Source: an uncultured virus (IMG/VR IMGVR_UViG_3300042516_001356) (taxonomy: Duplodnaviria > Heunggongvirae > Uroviricota > Caudoviricetes). From it: a DNA stretch of 64,000 bases. Made by a program: the position numbers and the translations under genes. The stretch lies in IMG/VR virus record IMGVR_UViG_3300042516_001356; one strand, written 5' to 3'. Below are positions 5,622 to 57,309 of the stretch, piece after piece. A model generated the notes under the pieces. That model worked only from the letters and a program-made list of their open reading frames with translations, made no database searches and was not told the origin of the DNA. How positions within the stretch are numbered: position 1 is the stretch's first letter; each line of letters starts with the position of its first letter.

Positions 5622-6038
5622 ATGGTAACACAGTTTGCAATGGATCTATTCAATGATCCTTTTTTTATTGGCTTTAACAGAGAGTTAGGCCGTTTAAATA
5701 CAGCACATAAAGTAAATTCACAATCATATCCTCCATACGATCTTCTTAAATTAGATGAAGATACATATAGGCTATCTCTTGCTATTGCGGGATTTACAAA
5801 AGAAGATATTGATGTATCAGTAGATAATGGAACCTTGGTAATTAAAGGTGAAATTGTAGAGGTTACAGATGCTGAAGTTGTTCACAAAGGAATTGCTGGT
5901 CGTAAGTTTGTACGATCTTTTGCTTTAGGTGAATACATGGAAGTATCTAGTGCTGAACTAAAAGATGGACTGCTAACAATTAATGTTGTTCGTGTAATTC
6001 CTGAAGATAAAAAACCTAAAGTAATTAAAATAAAATAA
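5622..6038 (+). CDS. hsp20: Small heat-shock protein Hsp20 (IbpA-like)
   Basis: SYPPYD, LAIAGF, HKGIAGRKFVRSF, LKDGLLTI alpha-crystallin motifs. Confidence 0.95.
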   Translation: MVTQFAMDLFNDPFFIGFNRELGRLNTAHKVNSQSYPPYDLLKLDEDTYRLSLAIAGFTKEDIDVSVDNGTLVIKGEIVEVTDAEVVHKGIAGRKFVRSFALGEYMEVSSAELKDGLLTINVVRVIPEDKKPKVIKIK

Positions 6039-6556: not shown

Positions 6557-6964
6557 ATGTATGAGTATTTTGTAAAAGAAGTAAAAAATGTTGTTGATGG
6601 AGATACCATTGATGTAATTATTGATTTAGGGTTTGATATTTTATTTTCATCCCGTGTTCGCTTAGCAGGTATTGATACACCAGAATCACGTACAACAGAT
6701 AAGATTGAAAAGACTCTTGGTCTTGAATCTAAAGAATATTTAAAAAAACAACTTAAAGATGCAAAGTCTGTGGTTATTCGTACAGAAAAAATGAACTCAT
6801 CTGAAAAATATGGACGCATTCTCGGCTGGATATATATTAACGGAGAGTCTGAATCAATTAATAATAAGATGATTAACGATGGATATGCTTGGGGATATCT
6901 TGGTGAAACTAAGATTAAAGATTTTGAAGTTCTTAAAAAGGCTAGATCAAAGTCTGGCAAATGA
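6557..6964 (+). CDS. Thermonuclease (SNase-like)
   Basis: VVDGDTIDV, RVRLAGIDTPE, KYGRILG. Confidence 0.92.
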   Translation: MYEYFVKEVKNVVDGDTIDVIIDLGFDILFSSRVRLAGIDTPESRTTDKIEKTLGLESKEYLKKQLKDAKSVVIRTEKMNSSEKYGRILGWIYINGESESINNKMINDGYAWGYLGETKIKDFEVLKKARSKSGK

Positions 6965-7233
6965 AAAACGTTTTTTACTTTACAGCAGACTGGTGCAACC
7001 CTTGTAAAAAAACAAGACCAGTCGTTGAGGAATTAAAAAAAGAAGGATTTCAGTTTCAAATTATAGATGTTGATTATGAACAACTTTTGGCTAAACAATT
7101 TCAAGTTAAATCAATTCCTACATTTATTTTATTAGAAGACGGCAAAGAACTTGATCGTGTAACTGGGGCACAAACAAGGGAAAAGTTAAATGAGTTTATT
7201 AACTATGAAAAAAATATTCAAGAGAATATTTAA
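6961..7233 (+). CDS. Thioredoxin
   Basis: FTADWCNPCK, SIPTF. Confidence 0.92.
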   Translation: MKNVFYFTADWCNPCKKTRPVVEELKKEGFQFQIIDVDYEQLLAKQFQVKSIPTFILLEDGKELDRVTGAQTREKLNEFINYEKNIQENI

Positions 7234-10053: not shown

Positions 10054-10335
10054 TTGAAACAGCATTTATGGAAAGATCAAGCCTTATGCTTGGGAATGGA
10101 CAACAATGCATTCTTTGATAAATACGAAGATTATGAAGAATCTAGAAAAGATATTGATGCACTTTGCAAACAATGCCCAGTAAAAAAAATATGTTTTGCC
10201 AACGGGGTCTCTGGAAAAGAATGGGGAGTCTGGGGTGGTGTTTATTTAGAGGGTGGAGAAGTTTCAAGAGAATTTAATAAGCATAAAACTAAAAAAGACT
10301 GGTATGAAACTTGGCAGTCTTTAACTATGGAATAA
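10054..10335 (+). CDS. whiB: WhiB-family Fe-S transcription factor
   Basis: W-x3-ALC...FF...C-x2-CPV-x3-C...GVWGG. Confidence 0.92.
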   Translation: MKQHLWKDQALCLGMDNNAFFDKYEDYEESRKDIDALCKQCPVKKICFANGVSGKEWGVWGGVYLEGGEVSREFNKHKTKKDWYETWQSLTME

Positions 10336-10816: not shown

Positions 10817-11305
10817 ATGCAAACCTTTCTACCTTACAAAGATTATAATCAGTGTGCGGAAATACTAGACAATAAACGATTAAATAAACAGATACTTGAA
10901 ACCTATCAGATACTCAAGGTTTTATCTGGCAGATCTACTTCAGGGGCATGGCGAAATCACCCAGCAGTCTTGATGTGGAAAGGTGCTGAGCACTCACTAA
11001 GAGCATACGTAAAGGCCATGATTACAGAGGCTACCTTGAGGGGTATTAAGACAGACAAGAACCAGGCCAATATAGAGGCTCTAGAAGCCCTTTCTGGCCC
11101 TATCTGGGGTACTGCTAAGCCTCTATGGAATAGTGCATCTCACGTAAATCGTGTTAATATCACTCATAGGACTAATCTATATCGTAAAGATCCTACATAC
11201 TATGCTGAGTTTTATATTGATACAAAAAGTGAATATAACAAGCCTTGTTGTGATAAGTGTTTATATTATTGGGTAACTCATGCCATTAGGGATAGAGTAC
11301 AATAG
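10817..11305 (+). CDS. Pyrimidine-dimer DNA glycosylase-like (MSMEG_6728 family)
   Basis: MQTFLPY...LDNKRLNKQILE..Q, WRNHPAVLMWKG, HRTNLYRKDP. Confidence 0.85.
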   Translation: MQTFLPYKDYNQCAEILDNKRLNKQILETYQILKVLSGRSTSGAWRNHPAVLMWKGAEHSLRAYVKAMITEATLRGIKTDKNQANIEALEALSGPIWGTAKPLWNSASHVNRVNITHRTNLYRKDPTYYAEFYIDTKSEYNKPCCDKCLYYWVTHAIRDRVQ

Positions 11306-27484: not shown

Positions 27485-27513
27485 ATTTTAGCACTCATGG
27501 CTGACAATGTCAA
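27485..27513 (-). promoter_or_regulatory. Promoter with PafBC/RecA-NDp element
   Basis: TTGACA-T-TGTCAG-N10-TAAAAT. Confidence 0.75.
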
Positions 27514-27602
27514 TCAGGACTGGGGAAAATAGTTTAATCTTCTTAAATGGTATAAATCGGACATTTGGGATATTCCCCGAGGATTTTTGCTGGGGATTTG
27601 TG

Positions 27603-27629
27603 AGGCAGTTTAAAGACGTGCCCAGGTCC
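27603..27629 (-). ncRNA. 3' pseudoknot element, copy 4
   Basis: GGAC-CT-GGGCA-C-GTCT-TTAAAC-TGCCT. Confidence 0.7.
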
Positions 27630-27644
27630 TTTAGTAGCCCCCTA

Positions 27645-28055
27645 CTAAAACTCCACTCCACTAAGAGAACTAGAAACATAAGTTATCTTGTCAGTGTCAT
27701 ATGAGATTGCGTCAAAATCAATATCATGAATGATATCTTCTACATCTTCACCTGCAGGTACATTAATGGTCATTGAATATTCTACGGTTACCATGACCTC
27801 AACTTCATTAGTTAATTCAAATCCACAGATTTCAGCAATTGCTTCTGCCTGCTCTTTTGTGATATCTTGATTTTCTAATTCAGTCGTGGTCCACGTATGC
27901 ATTTGATCACGCATTGCTGTTAGGTTAGCAGCGCCTGTGTAGTCACGTTGTGTTACTCTTTGGATGTGTTGCTCCAGTGTTAGAATGCGTTCATTTTTTT
28001 CTGCAATCTGAGATCTAAGATAATCTTCAGTTGCATGTATTGTTGTTTGCTCCAT
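27645..28055 (-). CDS. Hypothetical early protein
   Basis: RBS GAAAGTAGG; coiled-coil N-terminus. Confidence 0.7.
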   Translation of the reverse strand: MEQTTIHATEDYLRSQIAEKNERILTLEQHIQRVTQRDYTGAANLTAMRDQMHTWTTTELENQDITKEQAEAIAEICGFELTNEVEVMVTVEYSMTINVPAGEDVEDIIHDIDFDAISYDTDKITYVSSSLSGVEF

Positions 28056-28077
28056 AAGGGGCCTACTTTCTTAGTTA

Positions 28078-28110
28078 GAGGGGGGCAGGTTGTCTACCCC
28101 CCCTGTTTAT
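28078..28110. terminator. Hairpin terminator
   Basis: GGGGGGCAG...CTACCCCCC stem between genes. Confidence 0.55.
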
Positions 28111-28281
28111 TTATTTAGTTGTTGATACCATTGCTAAACGACGAGAGCCGTTTGCTAACTGTAGCGATACTCTAGTTAGTTTAGAGTTGATAGGTGAGAA
28201 TTTTACAATTCTACCTGTAACGCCAGTTTTGCTTGTGGTGAATAGATCACCTAGTTGATATGTGTATCCGCCTAGTGTCAT
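28111..28281 (-). CDS. Small SH3-like beta protein (paralog of 28905-29072; not in ORF track)
   Basis: MTLGGYTYQLGDLFTTSKTGVTGRIVK; RBS AAAAGGA. Confidence 0.7.
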   Translation of the reverse strand: MTLGGYTYQLGDLFTTSKTGVTGRIVKFSPINSKLTRVSLQLANGSRRLAMVSTTK

Positions 28282-28372
28282 GATTTTCCTTTTCTGTTTA
28301 TGGTGGTTTGTATTATTTAATTTTACTAGATTTTGACGGGGGAGTCAAATACCCTCCCCCATCTCTATCTAA

Positions 28373-28795
28373 TTAGAGATAACGAGCAACTGCGTTGTAT
28401 GTAGAAGTATTAACTACTTCCTCATCTGTCATCTTGAGGATACGAATAGCGTTAGACATTTCCTCTTTCTGCTCATTGTAAGTATGAGAGTGGATAACCT
28501 CAAAATCCTTTTCAGGCTCTTTAGGAAATTCTCCATCTTTGAGAATTAAATCAAAATCAACATTTAGTGTTGAGTTCCAAGAACGATAATTGGTTCTGAT
28601 GTTCTCAGCCTTAGCAATTTTACCTACTGCGAACTCAGCAAGTTCTTTTTGCCAAGCCTTGTAAGCCTTTTGATACTTTGCTTCGTTTTCACCTTGTGTA
28701 GCATAGTCTTTTTCTAGTTGTGCTAGTTTAGTTTCTAGTGCTTTGATTACTCTAGCAGTAGGGATTTTTACTGAGATTGCTTTTCCTCTTGACAT
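28373..28795 (-). CDS. Hypothetical early protein
   Basis: RBS AAAGGA; own promoter. Confidence 0.75.
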   Translation of the reverse strand: MSRGKAISVKIPTARVIKALETKLAQLEKDYATQGENEAKYQKAYKAWQKELAEFAVGKIAKAENIRTNYRSWNSTLNVDFDLILKDGEFPKEPEKDFEVIHSHTYNEQKEEMSNAIRILKMTDEEVVNTSTYNAVARYL

Positions 28796-28827
28796 GGTGT
28801 TCCTTTTCTTTAGTGGGTTATATTTCT

Positions 28828-28849
28828 AGTATAGGGGGTTGGTCTGACA
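28828..28849 (-). promoter_or_regulatory. Promoter with PafBC/RecA-NDp element
   Basis: TGTCAG-ACCAACCCCC-TATACT; no -35 match. Confidence 0.75.
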
Positions 28850-28856
28850 TTGTGGT

Positions 28857-28885
28857 GAGCAGTTTTAGTAGTCATGCTCAGGACT
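28857..28885 (-). ncRNA. 3' pseudoknot element, copy 5
   Basis: AGTC-CT-GAGCA-T-GACT-ACTAAAAC-TGCTC. Confidence 0.7.
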
Positions 28886-28904
28886 TTTAGCGTTTGCTAA
28901 AGTG

Positions 28905-29072
28905 TTATGACTTTGCTGTCCAAGTTGTCCAGCGAGTTGCGCCAGCAACATCTAACTTAACACGAACATTACCATTTGCCTGTGGCACGATTTCTTTGAT
29001 AACGCCTGTGGCTTTGGACTTTTGGCTTGTGTAGGTATCCCCTACTTTGTAAGTTGCGTTTGATACGGACAT
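28905..29072 (-). CDS. Small SH3-like beta protein
   Basis: MSVSNATYKVGDTYTSQKSKATGVIKEI; RBS AGGAG. Confidence 0.7.
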   Translation of the reverse strand: MSVSNATYKVGDTYTSQKSKATGVIKEIVPQANGNVRVKLDVAGATRWTTWTAKS

Positions 29073-29258
29073 GGTTCTCCTTTTTGTTGGTTTTTGCTTA
29101 CTATACAAGTCTAACATTTTTATCCCAAAAATACAAGTTATATCACAATAATCTCATATTTTGAGATGTGATTTAGACCACACTTAATGACCCATACCTG
29201 CGAACAATAGGCAGCAGAATATGATTGATAGTATTATTAACATTTCCAAGCGATACTC

Positions 29259-29987
29259 CTATTTTTTAGATGACGAGAATACGATGTCGCTCTTTGAGTA
29301 TACACACAATCCGCATGATACGCAAGCACTTCCACTATTTGAGATAAGGGGGATAGACTTTAGATTCTCAGGACACTTAGCGCCAGGACGGTTGAATAAC
29401 TCTTTCATGTCTGCTTGACCAATAGCAAAATTCTTTGCAAGGTATGCAAGACGCACTCCGTGATCTTTCTTTAAACTAACACCAATATCTTTATTCTCGC
29501 TATCTGTTGAATAGTATAAAGATAGATTAGGGATGTCCTTGAGCATTACCGCTGCAGAATGTACTCTAGTGTATACCCAAAACTTTACGTCACTATGATA
29601 CTCTATAACTTCTTTCCATGCTTTTGTGTAAGTGTCATTAAAGAAATCTCCGTCCCAGTGGATACGGAATAGTTTTTGTGCATTCTTCTTATCACAATCT
29701 TTTTTAAAATCAGCAATCATTACATATAGCAATGCCGTCATAGTTTCATGATCAGCGTTTTTCAATAACTCCCAATTGTGCAGGAGATTAGTTTTTACTC
29801 CTTTGAATAACTTTTCAAGTTTTCCTGCGTAGCAGACACTTTCGCAGACACTAGTAGCCCCAGGACATGAGAATTCTTTTCCAGCAGGTAATCCAAAAGT
29901 ATTGGCAATAGCGGACTGTTTTCCATTTTTTGTGACAAGGTTAGTCACCTTTCTATCATGTGATCTTTTTAACTGTGGTGTGTTCAT
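29259..29987 (-). CDS. GP88-family Cys-cluster protein
   Basis: FGLPAG..SCPGATSVCESVCYA, FRIHWDGDFF, FWVYTR, ACVSCGLC. Confidence 0.8.
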   Translation of the reverse strand: MNTPQLKRSHDRKVTNLVTKNGKQSAIANTFGLPAGKEFSCPGATSVCESVCYAGKLEKLFKGVKTNLLHNWELLKNADHETMTALLYVMIADFKKDCDKKNAQKLFRIHWDGDFFNDTYTKAWKEVIEYHSDVKFWVYTRVHSAAVMLKDIPNLSLYYSTDSENKDIGVSLKKDHGVRLAYLAKNFAIGQADMKELFNRPGAKCPENLKSIPLISNSGSACVSCGLCVYSKSDIVFSSSKK

Positions 29988-30069
29988 ATAAAAATTTTAG
30001 CATAATTTGGAGAAAATATCAAGCCTTCTTAATTGATACAAATCGGACAAATCGCTACTCGGGCGGCCT

Positions 30070-30321
30070 TTACTGTAACATCATTAAATCAAATTGGTCG
30101 TATTCGCCAACTTCAATTATTTCTCTTTCACCAAAATCATTTACAATTTCTAAAGTATATCCATCAGGTAGTGATACTATATCTACAATAGACACAACTT
30201 CATCGCCAATTAGAATACAATCTTCAATCTCTAATTGACCTGAAGTTAATATATCAACTTTTACATAGTCCACAATCTGAATGGTATCATCATTTTCTAG
30301 ATCAATCATCTTAGTCCTCAT
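30070..30321 (-). CDS. Hypothetical acidic protein
   Basis: ORF in operon. Confidence 0.6.
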   Translation of the reverse strand: MRTKMIDLENDDTIQIVDYVKVDILTSGQLEIEDCILIGDEVVSIVDIVSLPDGYTLEIVNDFGEREIIEVGEYDQFDLMMLQ

Positions 30322-30598
30322 TTACTGGGTCAATAAACCACTCTAGGTGGTGCTGGCTTACTATTGCGCTAGCAGGTGCGTGTGTCATTCCACGATATAA
30401 AATTTGAAAGTCGCCAACCATAGGCATCTCAATCATGCGTTGATAGTCCTCATCATAGAATGCGTCAATCGCTTCAATACAAGGCTTAACCATCTCTGCT
30501 GGTACTGGTGGATAGTGATTACCCTTTAAGTGATAAAGTAATTGAGTTTCTAAGTCTAAGACTTCATCTTTAATTCCTAGTGCTGTTATTGATCCCAT
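30311..30598 (-). CDS. Hypothetical protein
   Basis: HLKGNHYPPVP; translationally coupled. Confidence 0.7.
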   Translation of the reverse strand: MGSITALGIKDEVLDLETQLLYHLKGNHYPPVPAEMVKPCIEAIDAFYDEDYQRMIEMPMVGDFQILYRGMTHAPASAIVSQHHLEWFIDPVNED

Positions 30599-30807
30599 TA
30601 TTTAATTACCACATTTCCGTTAGTGTAGAAGGTCTTTGTATACATTTTACCTGTTGGGTCAGATAAATTATAGGTTGCGTATTCTTTAGCATCGCCAAAG
30701 TCTACACATTTAGTCCAAGCGTTTACTGCCTCTAGCATGTCGCTAACTCGCAGGGTATGAACTAACTCTCCGTCATACGAAGTAGTAAGTGAATAATTAT
30801 ATTCCAT
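30598..30807 (-). CDS. Hypothetical protein
   Basis: TAATG-coupled ORF. Confidence 0.65.
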   Translation of the reverse strand: MEYNYSLTTSYDGELVHTLRVSDMLEAVNAWTKCVDFGDAKEYATYNLSDPTGKMYTKTFYTNGNVVIK

Positions 30808-30992
30808 TATGCGTTCTCCTTAGTTTTAAATAATTGGTGGTAGTCCTGTATTTCATCAGCAGGGATATTGTAAGGATTACACTCACACGCCCATACATCA
30901 TAGTCTATAGCATTTCCTACGAATTGCCAACCTGCGCCATAGCAATCGCTATGAGCAAGAATATCCATTAGTGCATTTTTAACTTTACCCAT
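30807..30992 (-). CDS. Small Cys-containing protein
   Basis: CYGAGW...CECNPY; coupled. Confidence 0.65.
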   Translation of the reverse strand: MGKVKNALMDILAHSDCYGAGWQFVGNAIDYDVWACECNPYNIPADEIQDYHQLFKTKENA

Positions 30993-31137
30993 TAGTTATA
31001 TCCCTTCGCACAATACGAGCATAGCATCATAGTTTTACAATAGCAATCAGACACGCTAACACGCTCAACGTTAGAATAGTAGTCATCATAGAATTCATCA
31101 AAGTAATCTTTCATAGTTTTCCTTTCGTTATATCTTT

Positions 31138-31275
31138 ATCCTAGCAGACTGGACTGACGTTTTCAAACGACACGCCGTAAAGATCTGGGGAATCTGGGGT
31201 GTGTTTTTAATCACACGTAAAGGCCTGTGGACAAACCTGTGGAAAACGCCTCGGGGATTTTTAGAACAAACGTTC
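31138..31275 (-). promoter_or_regulatory. Regulatory block: RecA-NDp-type promoter, GACAC motif, CRP-like box, two DnaA-like boxes, LexA-like box
   Basis: CGTCAG-N10-TAGGAT (31138-31159); CGACACGCCG (~31168); TGTGT-N6-TCACA (31200-31215); TGTGGACAA (31226); TGTGGAAAA (31238); GAAC-N4-GTTC (31264-31275). Confidence 0.7.
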
Positions 31276-31458
31276 GGACAGTTTTATATCATGTCCAGGA
31301 TTTCATTTTATACTTTAAGAAGTTTACGCAATTCATTACGCAATCTACGAATTTCTTTTTGTTGTGCAATATTTTGTTTCCAAAATAAAAACATAACAGT
31401 TAAGCAACCAGTTAGCGCAATTATTATTGCAATTAAATCTAAATCAGTTAACATTTAT

Positions 31459-31671
31459 TTACCCCTTCCACATTTCAGATCCAACAGGAACTAAACCAAT
31501 TTCATCAATTCCACAAGCCTTCTCAAATCTTGCGAAATCAAAGTTTTCATTATCAGATTTGAACCACTCAGCAAACTCATTTACTAAATCCTCATAAGTA
31601 ATTTGTGGAATTTCATCAACAAATCCTTTTAGAATATTTGCGGTTTTAATATAGTCTTTTCTAGTCATCAT
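31459..31671 (-). CDS. Hypothetical protein
   Basis: MTRKDY...DNENFDFARFEKAC. Confidence 0.7.
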   Translation of the reverse strand: MMTRKDYIKTANILKGFVDEIPQITYEDLVNEFAEWFKSDNENFDFARFEKACGIDEIGLVPVGSEMWKG

Positions 31672-31816
31672 TAGTCGTTCTCCTTAGTGGTAAATAAAGT
31701 GCCTAGTGCAAAATTTTCACATTCGCACTTTTCTACATCATAGTCAAGATCATTACCCCAAAAAATAAGACCTTGCCCATTACACTCATCACAATCAAAA
31801 GCCATTACAGAGTTTA

Positions 31817-31999
31817 TCATTTAGCCAACCCCCTCAATGTTCCACGAACGCCAAGAGCGTCGCAAGACATTTTTACAGAGATACCAACAGGCAAAGCCTT
31901 TGGGTATTCGTTGATGAATTGAGATACAGCACCCTTTGAAGGAACGCTGATTTTTTTTACAGAACCATTAAAGGTTTCTAGTGTTATAGTGTAAGTCAT
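31817..31999 (-). CDS. Small protein (paralog of 35042-35227)
   Basis: RBS GAAAGGTGG; NGSVK...F...Y..ALPVG. Confidence 0.7.
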   Translation of the reverse strand: MTYTITLETFNGSVKKISVPSKGAVSQFINEYPKALPVGISVKMSCDALGVRGTLRGLAK

Positions 32000-32033
32000 T
32001 TCTGACCACCTTTCTTTATTGTTTGATAGGACT

Positions 32034-32099
32034 ATCCTACCAAAAATCCCTGACATTTTCAACCTGCTAGGGGTGTGTTGCCTTGTGATTTATCTCACA
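32034..32099 (-). promoter_or_regulatory. RecA-NDp-type promoter plus perfect CRP box
   Basis: TTGAAA-A-TGTCAG-N10-TAGGAT; TGTGA-TTTATC-TCACA at 32084-32099. Confidence 0.75.
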
Positions 32100-32219
32100 A
32101 AGCCCCTTCCTGAAATAAGCCTATTTCTAGGTCAAGCAATTCCTGCGGGGTAGCCTCAGATAAATCTACCCAGCCAGCACCATTTTCATCTAATCTAAAA
32201 ATTTCAATGTATCCCATTA

Positions 32220-32420
32220 TTATTCACCAACCTTCACCGCTATTGTGCGGAATTTATTTCTGAAAGTTCCAGAGTTAATTTCCACCAAATAGGCTTCGGT
32301 ATTTTCTCCATACCAAATTGCTTTAGGGTGTTTTTCTGCTGAGATAATTTCTCCACGCAAAGTTTTTGAGTTATAAGTCTTGCCAATTAGCAAGTTTTCT
32401 ATTGTGTATAAGTTAGCCAT
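32220..32420 (-). CDS. Hypothetical protein
   Basis: RBS GAAAGGAAG. Confidence 0.7.
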   Translation of the reverse strand: MANLYTIENLLIGKTYNSKTLRGEIISAEKHPKAIWYGENTEAYLVEINSGTFRNKFRTIAVKVGE

Positions 32421-32457
32421 TGTTAGCCACTTCCTTTCGTTATTTTCTTACTATGTA

Positions 32458-32644
32458 AGTCTATCAAAATTAGCAGACATTTACAACTTACTAGCCAGTA
32501 ATTCCAAATAATGAGACGCTCAGAGGTGTGATATGCCCCACAAAATTTCTGTGATCTTAAACACATCTCGTAAGTTATCCACAGGCTGTGGACGACACGC
32601 CAGGGGAGTCGGGTTTTTTATGCAGTGATCTGAATAATTATTCT
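32458..32644 (-). promoter_or_regulatory. Regulatory block: RecA-NDp-type promoter, TACT-N4-AGTA palindrome, two CRP-like boxes, DnaA box, GACAC, ARG-like box
   Basis: TGTCTG-N10-TAGACT (32458-32479); 32488-32501; 32527-32542; 32550-32565; TTATCCACA 32575-32583; TGAATAATTATTCT 32631-32644. Confidence 0.7.
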
Positions 32645-32911
32645 TTTACGAATAAATAAAATGCATAAGATAAACAGATCATTGAAAACCAAAACAATGC
32701 GTTACCACTTACAAAAAAGGTTTGATAAAAGTTATTCATTTATTTTTTTCCTGTTCTAATAAATCGTTATTAAATAGTTTTGCAATTCTAATTTGTTCTT
32801 TCTTTGGAGTGTTAGCCCAAAGATAACCAAGTAAATAGTGTGCGCCTGAGTCTCTATCGTTTCCACGAATTTGACGGCAGACATTTAGTACATCTTGAAG
32901 TTCAATACTCA

Positions 32912-33094
32912 TTAGTTAGACACTTTCCAATCTGTCCACATAGGCAGACGCTCTGGGTCAGTATCGTTATACCAACGCTCAATATTTTGTTCACAACTTT
33001 CGCAGAATGTGAATTGGTCATCTCCTACCATAGAGATAGCAGATTTATTTGGTGTATGCTCTTTGCATACTATTGTTTTTTCTAGTGTTATCAT
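32912..33094 (-). CDS. Small Zn-binding protein (paralog of 33921-34094)
   Basis: CKEHTPNKSAIS...FTFCESCEQNI. Confidence 0.7.
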   Translation of the reverse strand: MITLEKTIVCKEHTPNKSAISMVGDDQFTFCESCEQNIERWYNDTDPERLPMWTDWKVSN

Positions 33095-33315
33095 TTTAGA
33101 CAACCTTTCTTTTTTGTTAGTTAATTTTATTTTATTAAGTTATTATTTACACATTACGCATATTGGTTGGGCTATCCAACCGCCACCGCATTTTTCACAT
33201 TTATTGTAGCCCATAAGTTGAGCCATAGTATCTGTTATATCTTTTTCAAATATTCTGTTTGTCATTTTGACCTTTCTTGTTAAATAACCTTTATTTAACT
33301 TTCTTTATACTAGTA

Positions 33316-33493
33316 AGTATAACAGGGGGGTCTGACATCTACTAGCCAGTAAGTAGGGCAAAACGGACATTTTGATTTGTGATGTACGCCACATTTCTAT
33401 AGGTATGCCAATTAAGGCTCTGAGCAGGGCTTTTATAGAGGGGGGTAAATGTGATACGTATCATGTGGATAAACCTGTGGATAACTCCTCGGG
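33316..33493 (-). promoter_or_regulatory. Regulatory block: RecA-NDp promoter, TACT-N4-AGTA, CRP-like boxes, tandem DnaA boxes
   Basis: TGTCAG-N10-TATACT (33316-33337); 33339-33352; TGTGA-N6-CCACA 33378-33393; TGTGGATAA at 33464 and 33476. Confidence 0.72.
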
Positions 33494-33625
33494 TTTTTTA
33501 TTGCAATTTATTTTTATGTTTTATTTTTCTAGAATATTTTTTCTTATTTGGAATTGCAGTAGCCGCATTACTGCGGCGCAATTCTTGAATACGAATTATT
33601 TTATTTTTTATTTCTTTTAACATTT

Positions 33626-33817
33626 TTATTCTCCTCTACTTTCTGCGTCTGCTTCCCAATCAGATAACCAGACACGATAAGCAATTGGATCGCAATCTTT
33701 TACAATTTGAGAAGGGTAAAAAGTTATGCCACCAATTTCCACAGTGGGATAACATTCATCAAGCATTTCATTAAATTCATTTTCTAAATCTTGCTGAATT
33801 TCAAAATCAGTTTTCAT
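33626..33817 (-). CDS. Hypothetical acidic protein
   Basis: FNEMLDECYP...DPIAYR. Confidence 0.7.
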   Translation of the reverse strand: MKTDFEIQQDLENEFNEMLDECYPTVEIGGITFYPSQIVKDCDPIAYRVWLSDWEADAESRGE

Positions 33818-33920
33818 TTATTTACTCCCAACAATTAGAGCAAGTAATTATATCTTGCTCATCAAAGAATTCACTAGAAATTTTATTATCGCACAAGCGA
33901 CATGCTAAGGTTGTTATCAT

Positions 33921-34094
33921 TTACTTACCAACCTTCCATGAAGTCCAGTATGACATGAAGTCATTATCCTCACGAAGGTGAGAAGTTATATTCTGCTCAC
34001 AATCCTCGCAGAAAGTAAATCGCTCATCATGAACGATAGAGATAGCATTTTTATTAGGTGTATGCTTACACACTTTTTCTTTTAGTGAATTCAT
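33921..34094 (-). CDS. Small Zn-binding protein (not in ORF track)
   Basis: MNSLKEKVCKHTPNKNAISIVHDERFTFCEDCEQNI; RBS GAAAGGA. Confidence 0.75.
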   Translation of the reverse strand: MNSLKEKVCKHTPNKNAISIVHDERFTFCEDCEQNITSHLREDNDFMSYWTSWKVGK

Positions 34095-34143
34095 TTTGAA
34101 TTCCTTTCTTTAGTGAGAGTTTCTCACTTTCTTTATACTGGTA

Positions 34144-34559
34144 AGTCTAACATAGACCACTGACATTTTCGCTATTACTGACCAGTATATGAGACAATTT
34201 TTATGTGATCCGCAACACATTAGCCTGTGGATAACTCAGCAGTATACTCACCAGTATAAAAGTGTCTGTGGATAACCCCTGTGGATAACTCTAAAAAACC
34301 CGAGTCCAATGTCCGATTTGTACTATTTGTCGTGTGGTGTATATCACTAATTACAGGCATGTAATTCACGGCGTGTCGTCTTGACTTTTCAGGTATTGTG
34401 TGATAGTATTCTACTATAAATAAATAAAGAAAGATAGTCTCAATGAGCCTACCAAATAAGGCGAACAAGTGTTCGCATGAGCGTAGCAAGTAAGTGAGGC
34501 AAATCACACAAAAAAAGACAGCGTGTCGCCTTGACTTTTCAAGGTTTATATGATAGTCT
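34144..34559. promoter_or_regulatory. Divergent control centre: leftward RecA-NDp promoter, two tandem rightward sigma-A promoters, three DnaA boxes, CRP-like and LexA boxes
   Basis: TGTCAG-N10-TAGACT (-, 34144-34165); TTGACT-N17-TAGTAT (34381-34409) and TTGACT-N17-TAGTCT (34531-34559), both with extended TG; TGTGGATAA at 34226, 34267, 34280; CGAAC-N4-GTTCG 34462-34475. Confidence 0.8.
34437..34500 (+). ncRNA. Structured leader RNA 1 (two UGAGC/CAARUAA internal loops)
   Basis: Nested stems GTCTCA/TGAGGC, CTAC/GTAG, GCGAAC/GTTCGC. Confidence 0.55.
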
Positions 34560-34584
34560 TACGACATACAATTAAATAAGAAAT

Positions 34585-51833: not shown

Positions 51834-54800
51834 ATGTCTACCCCATCAAATTTATATGCAGAAAAAATATATTCTGAGCATCCAGTAGTCTTGTGGGCCT
51901 TAGACGACAAACTTGATTATAAGAGTTTAATATCTGAAGCCCAACGCAATCTTGCAACTTTCTGGACACCAACAAATGCTGCTCTTGCAGCCTCTGCTGC
52001 AGATATAAACAAACCTTTTGTAGATAGTCATTTATCAAGAATTAGGGTTGACGTACCTTTATCAGAAACGCTTGAAGCATCAGTTATTAGTCCAAACATA
52101 CTTAACCTTAATACTTTTGAAGATCTTGGAACTTTTACTGTCGGATCTTATTTTTATTCAAATAGTTTATTTTTACAAACAGTGTCAATAGGGTACGAGT
52201 ACACTGATCCAGACACGTCATTGATAGTTCAAAATTTAAAAACTTTTACAACAACTCTTTATCAAAAATGGGGATTTATTTCTGAAACTTTTGAAATACC
52301 AAATGTTTCTGCACAACTAAGGATTGTTTTTAAGATTAAAGTTTTTGAAGGATCAGTAACTTCTGAAGATAATGAATTTTATGTTAATGGTATTACCTTG
52401 GGGCAATGGAATGAAGAGTTTAACACTTATTCTTTAAACGGAATAACAGAAATTGAAGTTCCTTCAGATATAAGTATTTATGGCGGATACAATGCGGTAA
52501 AAGCAGAAGCATACGGAATAGCAGAAGATTCTGGATACTATATTACTGAGGGTGGGTTAAAATGTAAAAATACTGGCATTCCATTAGTTTATGGTGCCAG
52601 CGGAGTAACACGATTAGAACCAAACACTGATGCATCTTTGATTATTCCAGGAAAAGGATTTTTAAATAAAAAAGGACAATACAACGACTACACTATTGAA
52701 TTTTGGGCAAGAATAGCAGCAAATACATCTACACCATTTAAAGTATTTGGCCCAATATCCTCAGAGGATGGGTTATATGTTGAAGATGGATTTTTAACAT
52801 TAGTTGTTGGAGATCAATTTGCATCGCACTTTGTAGGCGAATGGTTTAGACCAATGCTTATTCATATTCGTTTAATTAAAAATTCTGCATCTTTGTTAGT
52901 TAATGGTGAAGAAGTTTTATCATTATCTTTAGATACCGCTAGTTTAATTTTTCCAGAAGAACTTGACAACAGCGGAAATAGTCAAGACTGGCTAGGCTTT
53001 TATGCAAGCAGCAACGTATATCCATTTGAACTTGATTGTGTTGCTATATATTCTTACCAAGTTCCAATTACAGTTGCAAAACGTAGATGGGTTTATGGTC
53101 AAGGGGTTATTTCTGCAGAAGGAATTAATTCGTCTTATGGCGGAACCACCGCTTTTATAGATTATTCATTTGCAGACTATACCGCTAATTACAATTATCC
53201 AGATTTTGCTGGCTGGGATCAAGGCAGTTTTGACAATTTAACAACTACTCAAACAAGTTTAAGAACTCCAGATTATAATTTGCCAGAAATATTTTTAGGC
53301 ACTAAAACATTACAAGATTTATACGACGACAACAAAGATGCACAAGATAATGAGTCTGGGCCTGTTATTAATAATAAGTTTTTATCATTTAGACCTAACA
53401 ACACTTGGAATTCTGTTGAGTCATACATAAATTTTTCAACATTTAACTTATTGCCAAGCGAAGTTGAAAGTTGCTATGGAGTGTTTAGTTCGCACAACTT
53501 AGCATCAGATGAAATATTATTTAAAATATACAACCCTTTAAATAATAACTACTTTACAATTTTTAAAGATGGAAATTTAATTAAATATTCTTTAACCTAT
53601 AATGGAGTTACCCAGTTACTTTTTACTTCTAGCGCCATTTCTGCCAACAGTCTTTTTTCAGTTGGATTTAATATAAAAAAAATGTCAGAAAAATTTGGCA
53701 GCAACGTAAATTCATTTTTTGGAAATCAAAGTTCGTTAAAAATGTATGTGTGTGGAGAAGATTCTGGAGAGTTTACATTTACTGGAAGGCTTTATTCTGT
53801 AGGATTATCTACAACATTAAATTCTACAAAAATAACAGATTATGTTGACATCAACGGATTTATTGAAATAGATAAGGGTCAAGAGTTGATCAACCATACT
53901 TCTAGTTACACTATACTTCCATCAGAGGCTTATGAAAAATATTTCTTAGACATAGGTGTTGCTGGATCCTGGCAAGACTACCTTCCACTTTCTTATTTTG
54001 CTCAGTTTGTAAAAAATAGTAACAATCAAGAGTTTTATGAAATAGATTTTTTACAGTTTAATTTAGGGTATCCAACAACAACTACTTTAGAACAAGAGTC
54101 TGGGGCATCTTCTTATTATTACAATACAGATGGTGCACAGATAAAAAGTTATGTAACATTTCAATATGTTGCCGATGGTGCAAATAACCCCAATCTTTTT
54201 GCTAATGAAGAAGCGCCAGATGAGCATAAAGTGCTTGACTTAAATAATTATGAAAATTGGGAAACAACTAGATTTGAAGTTTTGAATAATACATTAATTT
54301 ATCCAATTAAGTCGGTAGACTTTAATCAACTTGCAATTGTCTACAGCCTTGAGTTCAATAGTCGTGGAGTTTTAACTAAGCCGATTTTATTAAATAAGTT
54401 ACAGTTGGCATCTCAGGCATTTAATGATAACTCTTTTAATCCCATAGGAACCAGATTTGGAGTAGACCTGTTTCCATATAAAAAGAATGGTATTTATTTT
54501 GATTATAAGTCTAAAAATCCTTTTAGTATATATAAAGAAAGCACCCCATACCTACATTTAACGAAAACATCTGGAATTGAGGTTCGTGGTGAAATTAACA
54601 TTTTAGAAAATCGTGGAATAAATCTGCCGATTAACAGGGAGTTAGCAACAGAATATAAGGTAAGTGCTATGCAGTTGTGGTTAAAGTATGATCAAGACGC
54701 ATTTCCAGCAACAGCAACAGAGATTTTTGAAATTAATCATAAAGATGGAACTTTAAAATTTTACTTACAGGCAAACAGTGAAGACTTAAATAGAGGTAGG

Positions 54801-55298
54801 GTGTTTGTTTTAAATCAGAACGGTGTTCCATACAATGGTGTTGGATTTTATTTAAATGGAATTTTAGTAAAAGAACCAGTTTTATCTCTTAAAGCGTGGT
54901 CTTCAATAGGTATATCATTTTTAACTTCTCTTGTCTATAATTCATATCTTGGAAGCATAAATTTGACTGGTCCGATATTATTTAATAATATTGCATATTA
55001 TCAAGCAAACAGCCTACAGGAAGTTGAAAGTAGAACATTTAGGCCATGGTTTAAGGTATTAACAGACGGCATTACGACAAATGACTGGCAGTTCTGGTTC
55101 AATAACTTTACCTGGGACGGTATGTTAGTAATAGGATCATCAGAGTTCTATGGAATTAATCCATCAGATATTTATAAAACGTATACAGGCACAAATAAAA
55201 TAATTGTTGATGATGGAGAAGGCTTAGTCTATCAGCCTGAAAAATTAAATGTGTATGCAGAAGTAGATTGGTCAACTAACGTATCCACACCAGTATAA
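51834..55298 (+). CDS. Large virion protein with LamG/ConA-like domain
   Basis: HPVVLWALDD, YTIEFW, LLVNGE, DCVAIY. Confidence 0.65.
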   Translation: MSTPSNLYAEKIYSEHPVVLWALDDKLDYKSLISEAQRNLATFWTPTNAALAASAADINKPFVDSHLSRIRVDVPLSETLEASVISPNILNLNTFEDLGTFTVGSYFYSNSLFLQTVSIGYEYTDPDTSLIVQNLKTFTTTLYQKWGFISETFEIPNVSAQLRIVFKIKVFEGSVTSEDNEFYVNGITLGQWNEEFNTYSLNGITEIEVPSDISIYGGYNAVKAEAYGIAEDSGYYITEGGLKCKNTGIPLVYGASGVTRLEPNTDASLIIPGKGFLNKKGQYNDYTIEFWARIAANTSTPFKVFGPISSEDGLYVEDGFLTLVVGDQFASHFVGEWFRPMLIHIRLIKNSASLLVNGEEVLSLSLDTASLIFPEELDNSGNSQDWLGFYASSNVYPFELDCVAIYSYQVPITVAKRRWVYGQGVISAEGINSSYGGTTAFIDYSFADYTANYNYPDFAGWDQGSFDNLTTTQTSLRTPDYNLPEIFLGTKTLQDLYDDNKDAQDNESGPVINNKFLSFRPNNTWNSVESYINFSTFNLLPSEVESCYGVFSSHNLASDEILFKIYNPLNNNYFTIFKDGNLIKYSLTYNGVTQLLFTSSAISANSLFSVGFNIKKMSEKFGSNVNSFFGNQSSLKMYVCGEDSGEFTFTGRLYSVGLSTTLNSTKITDYVDINGFIEIDKGQELINHTSSYTILPSEAYEKYFLDIGVAGSWQDYLPLSYFAQFVKNSNNQEFYEIDFLQFNLGYPTTTTLEQESGASSYYYNTDGAQIKSYVTFQYVADGANNPNLFANEEAPDEHKVLDLNNYENWETTRFEVLNNTLIYPIKSVDFNQLAIVYSLEFNSRGVLTKPILLNKLQLASQAFNDNSFNPIGTRFGVDLFPYKKNGIYFDYKSKNPFSIYKESTPYLHLTKTSGIEVRGEINILENRGINLPINRELATEYKVSAMQLWLKYDQDAFPATATEIFEINHKDGTLKFYLQANSEDLNRGRVFVLNQNGVPYNGVGFYLNGILVKEPVLSLKAWSSIGISFLTSLVYNSYLGSINLTGPILFNNIAYYQANSLQEVESRTFRPWFKVLTDGITTNDWQFWFNNFTWDGMLVIGSSEFYGINPSDIYKTYTGTNKIIVDDGEGLVYQPEKLNVYAEVDWSTNVSTPV

Positions 55299-55712: not shown

Positions 55713-57309
55713 AGAACAGTATATCCGTGCAAGTCTTAATACAGAAGAAAAACAAGACAACATTTTTAAATCACATGACCCATTTAACAAAACTTGGGAT
55801 GTTTTAAAAGATTATGTTGGGCTTGACCAAAACTTTCGTCGTAGAACAACTCGCAATTTAACAAAATATGCTGCACCAGAATTTAATGAAGCATACTTAG
55901 ACGCAGCAAATGCAACCCCATCTGGAGTAAATGCGGGATCTAAGCAAATCAATCCAGGCACGGTATATAGAAATGGTTACGGACTATTTGACGTAATCAC
56001 TCCTCCATATAACATGTATGAGTTAGCCAACTTCTATGACACATCATTTGCTAACCATGCTGCTATTGACGCTAAAGTAGAAAACATTGTTGGTCTTGGA
56101 TATCGCTTTGATATTTCAGATAGAACTTTATTAAGGTTTGAAATGAATGACGATGCAGGTGCGGTAAGCCGTGCTCGTAGTCGTATTGAAAGAGCCAAGA
56201 TTCAAGTACGTGACTGGCTAGAAAATTTAAATGATGATGACAGTTTTACAAAAACAATGGAGAAGGTTTACACAGACCTTCAGGCAACAGGTAATGGTTT
56301 TATTGAAGTAGGTAGAACAACTGCTGGAGAAATTGGCTATGTTGGACATATTCCAGCAACAACTGTCCGCATACGACGCTTGCGTGATGGGTTTGTACAG
56401 ATTATTGGTCAAAAAGTAGTTTACTTTAGAAATTTTGGAGCAAAAAATGCAAACCCTTTGGGTACTGATCCACGCCCAAATGAGATTATCCATTTAAAAC
56501 AATACTCACCTTTAAATACATTTTATGGTGTTCCAGATATTATTGCAGCAATGCCATCTCTTATCGGAGATCAACTTGCCTCTCAATACAATATTGACTA
56601 CTTTGAAAACAAGGCTGTTCCGAGATATGTTGTAACCCTAAAGGGTGCAAAACTTTCAGGTGATGCTGAAGATAAAATGTTTAGATTTTTACAAACTGGG
56701 CTTAAGGCTCAGTCACATAGAACACTTTATATCCCGCTTCCTGGAGACACAGAGGGGAATAAAGTTGAATTTAAGATGGAACCAATTGAAAACGGTATTC
56801 AAGATGGCTCATTTAAAGAGTATCGCAAGCAAAACCGTGATGATATTTTAATTGCACATCAAGTTCCTATTTCAAAACTAGGTGGTGCAGACTCTGCAAG
56901 CATCGCAGCAGCACTTTCTCAAGATCGTACATTTAAAGAACAGGTTTCTCGTCCAGCACAAAGACATTTGGAAAAAGTTGTAAACAAGATTATACGAGAA
57001 AAAACCGACATCCTTGAACTTAAATTTAACGAACTAACCCTAACTGACGAAATTGCACAATCTCAAATTATTGAAAGATACGTAAAAACTCAAGTTATGA
57101 CTCCAAACGAGGCTCGTGAAAAATTAGACTTGCCATTGAGAGTAGACGGAGATGAACCATTTGTGATGTCACCAAGACAGGCAACTGATGCTAGAGCAAA
57201 TTTGGCAGGAAACCGTGAAAGAGATTCAGAAAGAACAAATAATAATTCTGACTCACCAACTACAATATCTGGACGAAATGCACAAGGTGAAGGTAGATCG
57301 TCTCAATAA
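55705..57309 (+). CDS. Portal protein
   Basis: TGNGFIE, NEIIHL...YGVP, YFENKAVP, ILIAHQVP, MTPNEARE. Confidence 0.92.
   Translation: MSEEQYIRASLNTEEKQDNIFKSHDPFNKTWDVLKDYVGLDQNFRRRTTRNLTKYAAPEFNEAYLDAANATPSGVNAGSKQINPGTVYRNGYGLFDVITPPYNMYELANFYDTSFANHAAIDAKVENIVGLGYRFDISDRTLLRFEMNDDAGAVSRARSRIERAKIQVRDWLENLNDDDSFTKTMEKVYTDLQATGNGFIEVGRTTAGEIGYVGHIPATTVRIRRLRDGFVQIIGQKVVYFRNFGAKNANPLGTDPRPNEIIHLKQYSPLNTFYGVPDIIAAMPSLIGDQLASQYNIDYFENKAVPRYVVTLKGAKLSGDAEDKMFRFLQTGLKAQSHRTLYIPLPGDTEGNKVEFKMEPIENGIQDGSFKEYRKQNRDDILIAHQVPISKLGGADSASIAAALSQDRTFKEQVSRPAQRHLEKVVNKIIREKTDILELKFNELTLTDEIAQSQIIERYVKTQVMTPNEAREKLDLPLRVDGDEPFVMSPRQATDARANLAGNRERDSERTNNNSDSPTTISGRNAQGEGRSSQ

Follow-up and report, generated by a model that had tools for sequence, protein, structure and literature searches.

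PafBC-type promoter sequences in front of a block of small, probably early genes in an uncultured actinobacterial phage

The 64,000-nucleotide (nt) stretch from the IMG/VR virus record IMGVR_UViG_3300042516_001356, an uncultured member of Caudoviricetes (the whole stretch is called the window here), carries seven minus-strand sites in which a TGTCAG-like box stands ten nt ahead of a TAnnnT -10 element. These sites raise the question of what reads them, and whether the phage has tied its first genes to PafBC, the WYL-domain activator of the actinobacterial DNA-damage response, as the initial annotation of this DNA had proposed. Judged from their sequence and surroundings, the seven sites are real promoters, and they serve a block of small phage genes that gene size and layout mark as probably early. 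At the level of sequence there is good support for placing them in the actinobacterial RecA-NDp/PafBC class of promoters. Activation of the block genes by host PafBC would be the best explanation of the data, and we lean cautiously towards it.

A pattern search of the window for TGTCRG-N10-TAnnnT returned six exact copies, all on the minus strand. The expectation from shuffled sequence was 1.12 ± 1.10, and none of the 100 shuffles reached six. Five of the six copies (27485, 28828, 32034, 33316 and 34144) were already listed in the initial annotation, whose seven minus-strand sites were all recovered at the same coordinates, including the two with variant boxes (CGTCAG at 31138 and TGTCTG at 32458). 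One register is common to the seven sites, namely a hexamer, 1 nt (A or T), (T/C)GTC(A/T)G, N10 and TAnnnT, with the GTC in register in 7/7, so that a -35 element would fall in the hexamer at the normal 17-nt spacing. Fair to perfect -35 hexamers were found in this position at four sites (TTGACA, TTGAAA, TTGAAA and TTGTAA). The lack of a good -35 that had been described for 28828, 33316 and 34144 was borne out, as their hexamers (ACCACA, TAGTAG and GCGAAA, respectively) are poor. All seven sites are intergenic. Six of them lie in gaps of 95-315 nt, and site 34144 has no upstream gene in the list of open reading frames (ORFs). Each site is followed by a Shine-Dalgarno sequence and a start codon ~23-50 nt downstream. 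The N10 spacers are completely different between the sites, so the shared box does not come from simple duplication. Three conventional promoters without the box also exist in the same block (30022, 28348 and 29128).

A motif search in related phages, which had been suggested as a check, was carried out on a family set of 160 related loci (2.66 Mb, 76-92% protein identity, contigs up to 119 kb, 33-41% GC), and the box and its N10 register recurred across all of this set. On the early-gene strand, TAnnnT stood at exactly N10 after 1060 of the 1547 TGTCRG words, versus 9 at N9 and 10 at N11. The opposite strand contained 104 sites, and the reversed-pattern controls gave 6 and 14. Every one of the 160 loci had at least one site and 115 had at least five, with a median of six; in three complete genomes the sites form a single block of ~5-10 kb on one strand. 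When 229 non-redundant sites were aligned, the positions that the search did not fix showed T before GTC at a frequency of 0.90 and A after GTC at 0.81, the TG of an extended -10 was present at 0.61 (T) and 0.68 (G), and the -35 zone held no more than 0.3 bit of information. The R of the box was A in 186 of 201 non-redundant phage sites.

The bases behind the box were then compared with cellular promoters. In the 201 non-redundant phage sites, the triplet directly after TGTCRG was TGG in 53 (15-fold over background) and ACC in 37 (16-fold over background; ACCC in 32). Among 151 sampled Actinomycetota genomes, TGTCRGTGG-N7-TAnnnT gave 235 matches versus 17 in the controls and was found in 45 genomes, and TGTCRGACC-N7-TAnnnT gave 108 versus 27 and was found in 47 genomes; these totals were summed by hand from tables, hold two matches each on a phage-like contig (G005:C102) and, like the tally of WYL genes given below, include eleven unpublished genomes (G007, G024, G054, G088, G094, G126, G153, G179, G230, G242 and G267), without which the TGG total falls from 235 to 226 and the ACC total from 108 to 106. 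Nine of 28 ORFs scanned downstream of the cellular ACC sites act on DNA, namely recA (2), ftsK, sbcD, an AlkZ-like glycosylase gene, a PD-(D/E)XK nuclease gene, an HNH/DUF222 gene, thyX and an EVE-domain gene. Many ORFs behind these sites begin 5-10 nt past the -10, as in leaderless genes. The genome G305, which has a high GC content and tandem WYL genes, contained 13 sites versus 0 in the controls, reading TGTCGGTGG or TGTCAGACCC and preceding ssb, rpsF, dnaN, a comM-like gene, UPF0102 and recA. The RecA-NDp promoter of Streptomyces coelicolor SCO6735 reads TGTCAGTGG-N7-TACGGT in the primer text of PMC5087735, and its 9-mer is identical to that of window site 34144. Near-equal cellular and phage copies were also observed, such as TGTCAGACCCCCCTGCTAGCGT in genome G149 versus TGTCAGACCCCCCTGTTATACT in the window.

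The presence of these sub-words goes together with the loss of the -35. Only 5 of 90 canonical phage sites, which carry TGG or ACC, have a -35 with at least 4/6 matches (the random-hexamer level is 4.6%), versus 26 of 111 non-canonical sites (Mann-Whitney p = 3.5e-5, an approximate value because the sites are related). The split within the window agrees with this: the sites without -35 carry ACC, ACC and TGG, and the four with -35 carry other triplets or a variant box. A missing -35, as a mark of the class, fits three of the seven window sites and the canonical family sites, and fits neither the other four window sites nor the 26 non-canonical ones.

As far as the available text of PMC8635444 describes it, the PafBC promoter reads tGTCgg(N10)tA(N3)T, lacks a -35 and is recognised by PafB through the GTC, in the region from -23 to -28. 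The assignment to this class in the initial annotation is supported by the geometry, the GTC core, the TGG and ACC sub-words and the missing -35 of the canonical sites; it does not hold to the full for the four sites that carry a -35. The design of the phage class, as its sequence suggests, is a TAnnnT -10, often extended by TG, plus a TGTCAG box at -26 that replaces a -35 or adds to it. What the sequences themselves show is the promoter class, its conservation throughout the family and its agreement with the promoters of cellular damage genes.

The next question is who reads the box, and it depends on the host. The GC content of the window (~35%) first led to the idea of a Firmicutes phage, which was rejected on the evidence of the portal, ribonucleotide reductase (RNR) and WhiB. 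The portal is 46% identical to the portals of ~130-kb Streptomyces phages (Stanwilliamsviridae), the class II RNR is ~60% identical to the enzymes of Actinomycetia phage DSL-LC01 and Mycobacterium phage Gaia, one window gene belongs to the mycobacteriophage GP88 family, and WhiB is encoded in the window and in 3/3 complete relatives. Therefore, the host is an actinobacterium. A DNA comparison with the deposited phage collection gave no close relative. IMG/VR contains a near-identical 42-kb fragment (G001), and there are several hundred related contigs.

No WYL domain, HTH_PafC or Sigma70_r2 was detected in G001 or in the three complete relatives (G001-G004), and no DNA-binding family besides WhiB was found among the window ORFs. 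Reading of the promoters would therefore fall to the sigma-A polymerase of the host, with or without a further host factor, unless a phage protein that escaped recognition takes part. On the cell side, 255 of the 301 Actinomycetota genomes sampled have WYL genes, in most cases two. A PafB/PafC pair (WYL+WCX, then HTH_PafC+WYL+WCX) was also found in two small genomes, G026 (37.7% GC at the locus) and G243 (35.9% GC), and PafB of G243 keeps both GTC-reading arginines in an alignment that was compared by eye. The neighbours of pafB-pafC in these genomes (loci L252 and L253, respectively) are RNase_H_2, HD_5 and DUF5317 genes. In contrast to the classical Pup-proteasome context, the examined stretches of the two loci yielded neither a Pup ligase nor a tat gene.

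In the available text of PMC11804915, PafBC is activated by single-stranded DNA (ssDNA) and only then joins the RNA polymerase-sigma-A complex on the promoter. If the phage sites work in the same way, host sigma-A RNA polymerase would read them with the help of the host PafBC heterodimer. PafBC loaded with ssDNA would place itself between the DNA and region 4 of sigma, where it would read the GTC triplet; this mode is called 'sigma adaptation'. The canonical sites 34144, 33316 and 28828 would depend on PafBC, and the four hybrid sites with a -35 would have a basal activity, which PafBC would raise. In this way the first genes of the phage would be tied to the ssDNA alarm of the cell and set off by incoming DNA or by damage such as that from ultraviolet (UV) light; the need of PafBC for ssDNA makes a trigger at DNA entry or after UV damage plausible. 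For the phage promoters, the binding of PafBC, the timing and the trigger are what we infer from the sequences.

Several observations weigh against this proposal. A dedicated activator could be encoded among the dozens of phage ORFs that belong to no known family. With a fair -35 at four of the seven window sites and an extended -10 at most sites, recognition by sigma-A alone might be enough, and those four sites may need no activator. The sites counted across relatives are not independent events, which makes the p-values approximate, and the cultured relatives Birchlyn and DSL-LC01 have 0 sites and Gaia has 3 scattered ones. No WYL match was obtained in 46 of the 301 sampled genomes, most of them small (1.3-1.8 Mb), and PafB of G026 has Q at the R46 position and keeps R50 only. 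The low- and mid-GC genomes tested showed no excess of the motif over controls (18 versus 10 in G026, 8 versus 17 in G243, 13 versus 12 in G180, and 19 versus 17 in G005, where 4 of the 19 lie on a phage-like contig), and 27 sampled genomes of at most 1.8 Mb gave 2 versus 2 for TGG and 3 versus 8 for ACC. The motif was absent from the recA promoters of G180 and G011, which have a LexA-type box, and from that of G243, where nothing was found in its place; the recA promoter of G026 has only a near-match, TGTCGC-N10-TATTAT. Use of the motif by cells was seen only in high-GC lineages. The background of TAnnnT in AT-rich DNA is high and could hide a small regulon.

The searches for the host itself belong to the same side of the balance. 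When the phage WhiB was compared with the genome collection, five loci on short contigs were obtained, the best three 65-67% identical, and these were phage-like contigs in metagenome-assembled genomes (MAGs); among the 301 Actinomycetota genomes, cellular WhiBs were at most 40% identical, and neither comparison identified the host. A protein atlas search with the epimerase led to the phylum level only. Contigs of the phage family (C69, C75 and C102; loci L175, L176, L222 and L268-L270) were binned in MAG G005, which is labelled Acidimicrobiaceae. C102 has 38% GC and the pafBC locus of this MAG has 70-72% GC; the phage contigs are bin contamination and inflate the motif counts of that genome. 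The co-binning was rejected as host evidence, since the chromosome of G005 itself shows no motif excess. The phage isolates of 'Ca. Planktophila' (39 kb, 44.8% GC; PMC10202952) belong to a different group and gave no host identification.

Instead of PafBC, an activator encoded by the phage or delivered with the virion could read the TGTCAG box, as MotA/AsiA of T4 do at the MotA box, and the likeness to PafBC would be a convergence on one geometry, in which a -10 is combined with a box near -26 to -30. An unrecognised factor could be among the ORFs without a known family, which are the majority both in the block and in the genome, although neither a WYL nor a PafC-type HTH nor a sigma factor was detected in the three complete relatives. 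The confinement of the promoter class to this phage family, with its absence from cultured relatives, and the lack of visible use of the motif in the host-like low-GC genomes tested both suit a factor of the phage, but convergence would not predict the TGG and ACC(C) sub-words of cellular damage promoters. T4 sigma appropriation is named as the nearest phage precedent in the available part of PMC8635444. Since 34144, the promoter that opens the block, is itself canonical, the factor would have to come with the virion or from elsewhere. We consider such an activator unlikely.

A similarly low probability is given to the idea that host sigma-A reads ordinary extended -10 or -35/-10 promoters, with TGTCAG as a spacer word that has another job, such as serving as the operator through which a phage repressor silences the block, or titrating a host protein. 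An extended -10 TG occurs in 61-68% of the sites and a fair -35 at 4/7 window sites, but the loss of the -35 specifically at sites with canonical sub-words is left unexplained. The conventional promoters at 30022, 28348 and 29128, which have no box, lie within the same block, and other conserved words (CCACA boxes, GCGTGTCG and ATGTCCGA) crowd the same regions and suggest dense regulation; an operator, in contrast, would explain neither the exact N10 register with the -10 nor the identity with the promoters of cellular damage genes. Chance, or the recent duplication of one promoter cassette, has a negligible probability and is effectively refuted, because, although the gene cassettes at 33921-34094 and 32912-33085 are paralogous and promoters 1 and 2 have the downstream word TAC(C/T)AGTATAAAGAAAG in common, no shuffle reached the window count, the N10 spacers are unrelated, and 201-229 non-redundant family sites keep the box and the register while their flanks diverge.

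Returning to activation by host PafBC, a wider proposal can be made, which we hold with a little less confidence than the activation itself. A very abundant family of lake phages with genomes of ~100-120 kb may gate its first genes on the ssDNA alarm of the host, where promoters made purely of the -26 box and the -10 would be silent to sigma-A alone and would become active only when host PafBC carrying ssDNA, from the incoming genome or from UV damage, adapts sigma to them, with the hybrids as a graded back-up. If this is true, it would be the first virus that uses sigma adaptation, or a WYL activator, as an entry switch. Activation by host PafBC, if it is right, would also be a new takeover of transcription without an own factor, through a host activator that senses ssDNA, and it would link the success of infection to stress from UV or damage in surface waters, in which this phage family and its hosts are highly abundant. 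The literature search returned no paper that places PafBC-type promoters before phage genes, and in what it returned they are described only for cellular DNA-damage genes. The nearest item is a 2025 paper, known to us from its citation only, which reportedly deals with pafBC and mycobacteriophage resistance.

The features of the window are collected in Table 1. Several genes of the leftward block encode Cys-rich zinc-ribbon-like motifs. The two paralogues in the block each head a promoter unit or sit early in one, and from their sequences they are candidates for small takeover proteins that bind DNA or RNA polymerase. The pyrimidine-dimer glycosylase gene elsewhere in the window fits a life in UV-exposed surface water. 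A phage RNA polymerase was considered for the long ORF that lies between the RNR gene and the portal gene, and no sequence match was found for this ORF in Pfam, PHROG or PDB.

Table 1. Promoter sites, genes and other features of the 64-kb window
Feature	Position	Strand	Sequence or content	Context
Promoter 1	34144..34172	-	GCGAAA-a-TGTCAGTGG..N10..TAGACT; canonical TGG sub-word, without -35	Opens the leftward block; heads genes 34094-33498
Promoter 2	33316..33344	-	TAGTAG-a-TGTCAGACCCCCCTGT-TATACT; canonical ACC sub-word, extended -10 TG, without -35	Heads genes 33265 to ~32640; has close cellular look-alikes
Promoter 3	32458..32486	-	TTGTAA-a-TGTCTG-N10-TAGACT; hybrid, -35 plus variant box	Heads genes 32420-32095
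Promoter 4	32034..32062	-	TTGAAA-a-TGTCAG-N10-TAGGAT; hybrid with -35	Heads genes 31999-31308
Promoter 5	31138..31166	-	TTGAAA-a-CGTCAG-N10-TAGGAT; hybrid, -35 plus variant first base	Heads genes 31114-30070
Promoter 6	28828..28856	-	ACCACA-a-TGTCAGACC..N10..TATACT; canonical ACC sub-word, without -35	Heads gene 28795-28373
Promoter 7	27485..27513	-	TTGACA-t-TGTCAG-N10-TAAAAT; perfect -35 plus extended -10	Heads DUF932 gene (ATG 27458, stop 26436)
Sixth exact copy	56989..57010	-	TGTCGG-N10-TATAAT	Absent from the initial annotation; lies within the portal gene in antisense; probably a chance match or a minor antisense promoter
Upstream modules of promoters 1, 2, 3 and 5	31226..34288	-	Paired TTATCCACAGG-type boxes plus ATCACA, TGTCCG and GCGTGTCG words	
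Gene block	30070..34094	-	~20 small genes (32-95 aa), most of no known family	Predicted to be driven by promoters 1-5
Paralogue pair	33921-34094 and 32912-33085	-	~57-aa proteins with CxH..CxxC zinc-ribbon-like pattern	
WhiB-family gene	10054..10335	+		Marker of actinobacterial host
Pyrimidine-dimer DNA glycosylase (Pyr_excise)	10817-11305	+		
Hsp20	5622-6038	+		
Thioredoxin	6961-7233	+		
1154-aa ORF	51834-55298	+		Between RNR and portal genes

Other words were observed around the promoters. Paired TTATCCACAGG-type boxes, which we take to be DnaA-box-like, locate 70-130 nt upstream of 34144, 33316, 32458 (an inverted pair there) and 31138. Six of the eight exact copies of TTATCCACA in the window fall within 32.5-34.3 kb. 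In the family, a TTATCCACAGG-type box was found upstream in 39 of 203 non-redundant promoter contexts, and TCCACAGG was enriched 9.5-fold. The word GCGTGTCG occurs at 31168, 32593, 34371 and 34521, that is, in four copies versus 0.16 expected, all in the promoter block, and upstream of the family promoters it was present in 37/203 contexts (9-fold enriched). ATGTCCGA (29/203) and AAGATCAC were also enriched upstream of the family promoters. Judged from this enrichment, GCGTGTCG, ATGTCCGA and AAGATCAC could be the sites of further regulators.

Repeats were present as well. The divergent control region at 34.2-36.6 kb contains a direct repeat, TGAAAAGTCAAG(A/G)CGACACGC, with two copies ~150 nt apart (34380-34560, minus strand) that lie upstream of the first promoter. 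AAAAACCCGAG-like words stand directly after the last gene of each unit, at 33500, 32620 and 31250 on the minus strand and at 34300 in inverted orientation. Promoters 1 and 2 are flanked by an inverted pair, with TACTGG(T/C)(C/T)AGTA upstream and TAC(C/T)AGTATAAAGAAAG downstream (34144-34125 and 33316-33297, minus strand), which looks like an operator; promoter 3 has TACTGGCTAGTA upstream.

Among known systems, the phage sites are most directly compared with the PafBC/RecA-NDp promoters of Mycobacterium, Streptomyces and other Actinobacteria, which, in the available parts of their descriptions (PMC8635444, PMC11804915, PMC6789036), have the same tGTC(A/G)G at -28 to -23, 10 nt from TAnnnT. The likeness includes the invariant GTC, the lack of a -35 at the canonical phage sites and the same TGTCRGTGG and TGTCRGACCC words; some of the cellular copies share the extended -10 TG as well. 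In contrast to the cellular promoters, the phage sites precede tiny genes without an assigned function rather than repair genes, and they are clustered on one strand as 7-14 sites per 5-10 kb block. The R of the phage box is mostly A, and about a quarter of the non-canonical phage sites add a -35.

Two kinds of phage promoters are also related to this design. T4 middle promoters consist of a MotA box and a -10 and are read through sigma appropriation by AsiA/MotA. In these T4 promoters, as in the class described here, the -35 gives way to a box near -30 and the host -10 is kept. However, T4 supplies its own factors for its middle genes, whereas none was found here and the box equals the site of a host activator. 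LexA-controlled (SOS-box) promoters of phages and prophages act by the release of a repressor, mostly in prophage induction. As in these, the phage genes described here would be tied to a DNA-damage signal of the host, a link that is putative in the present case. Unlike the SOS-box promoters, the sites of this family appear to have an activator-dependent design, and they stand before what are probably the first genes of an apparently lytic phage.

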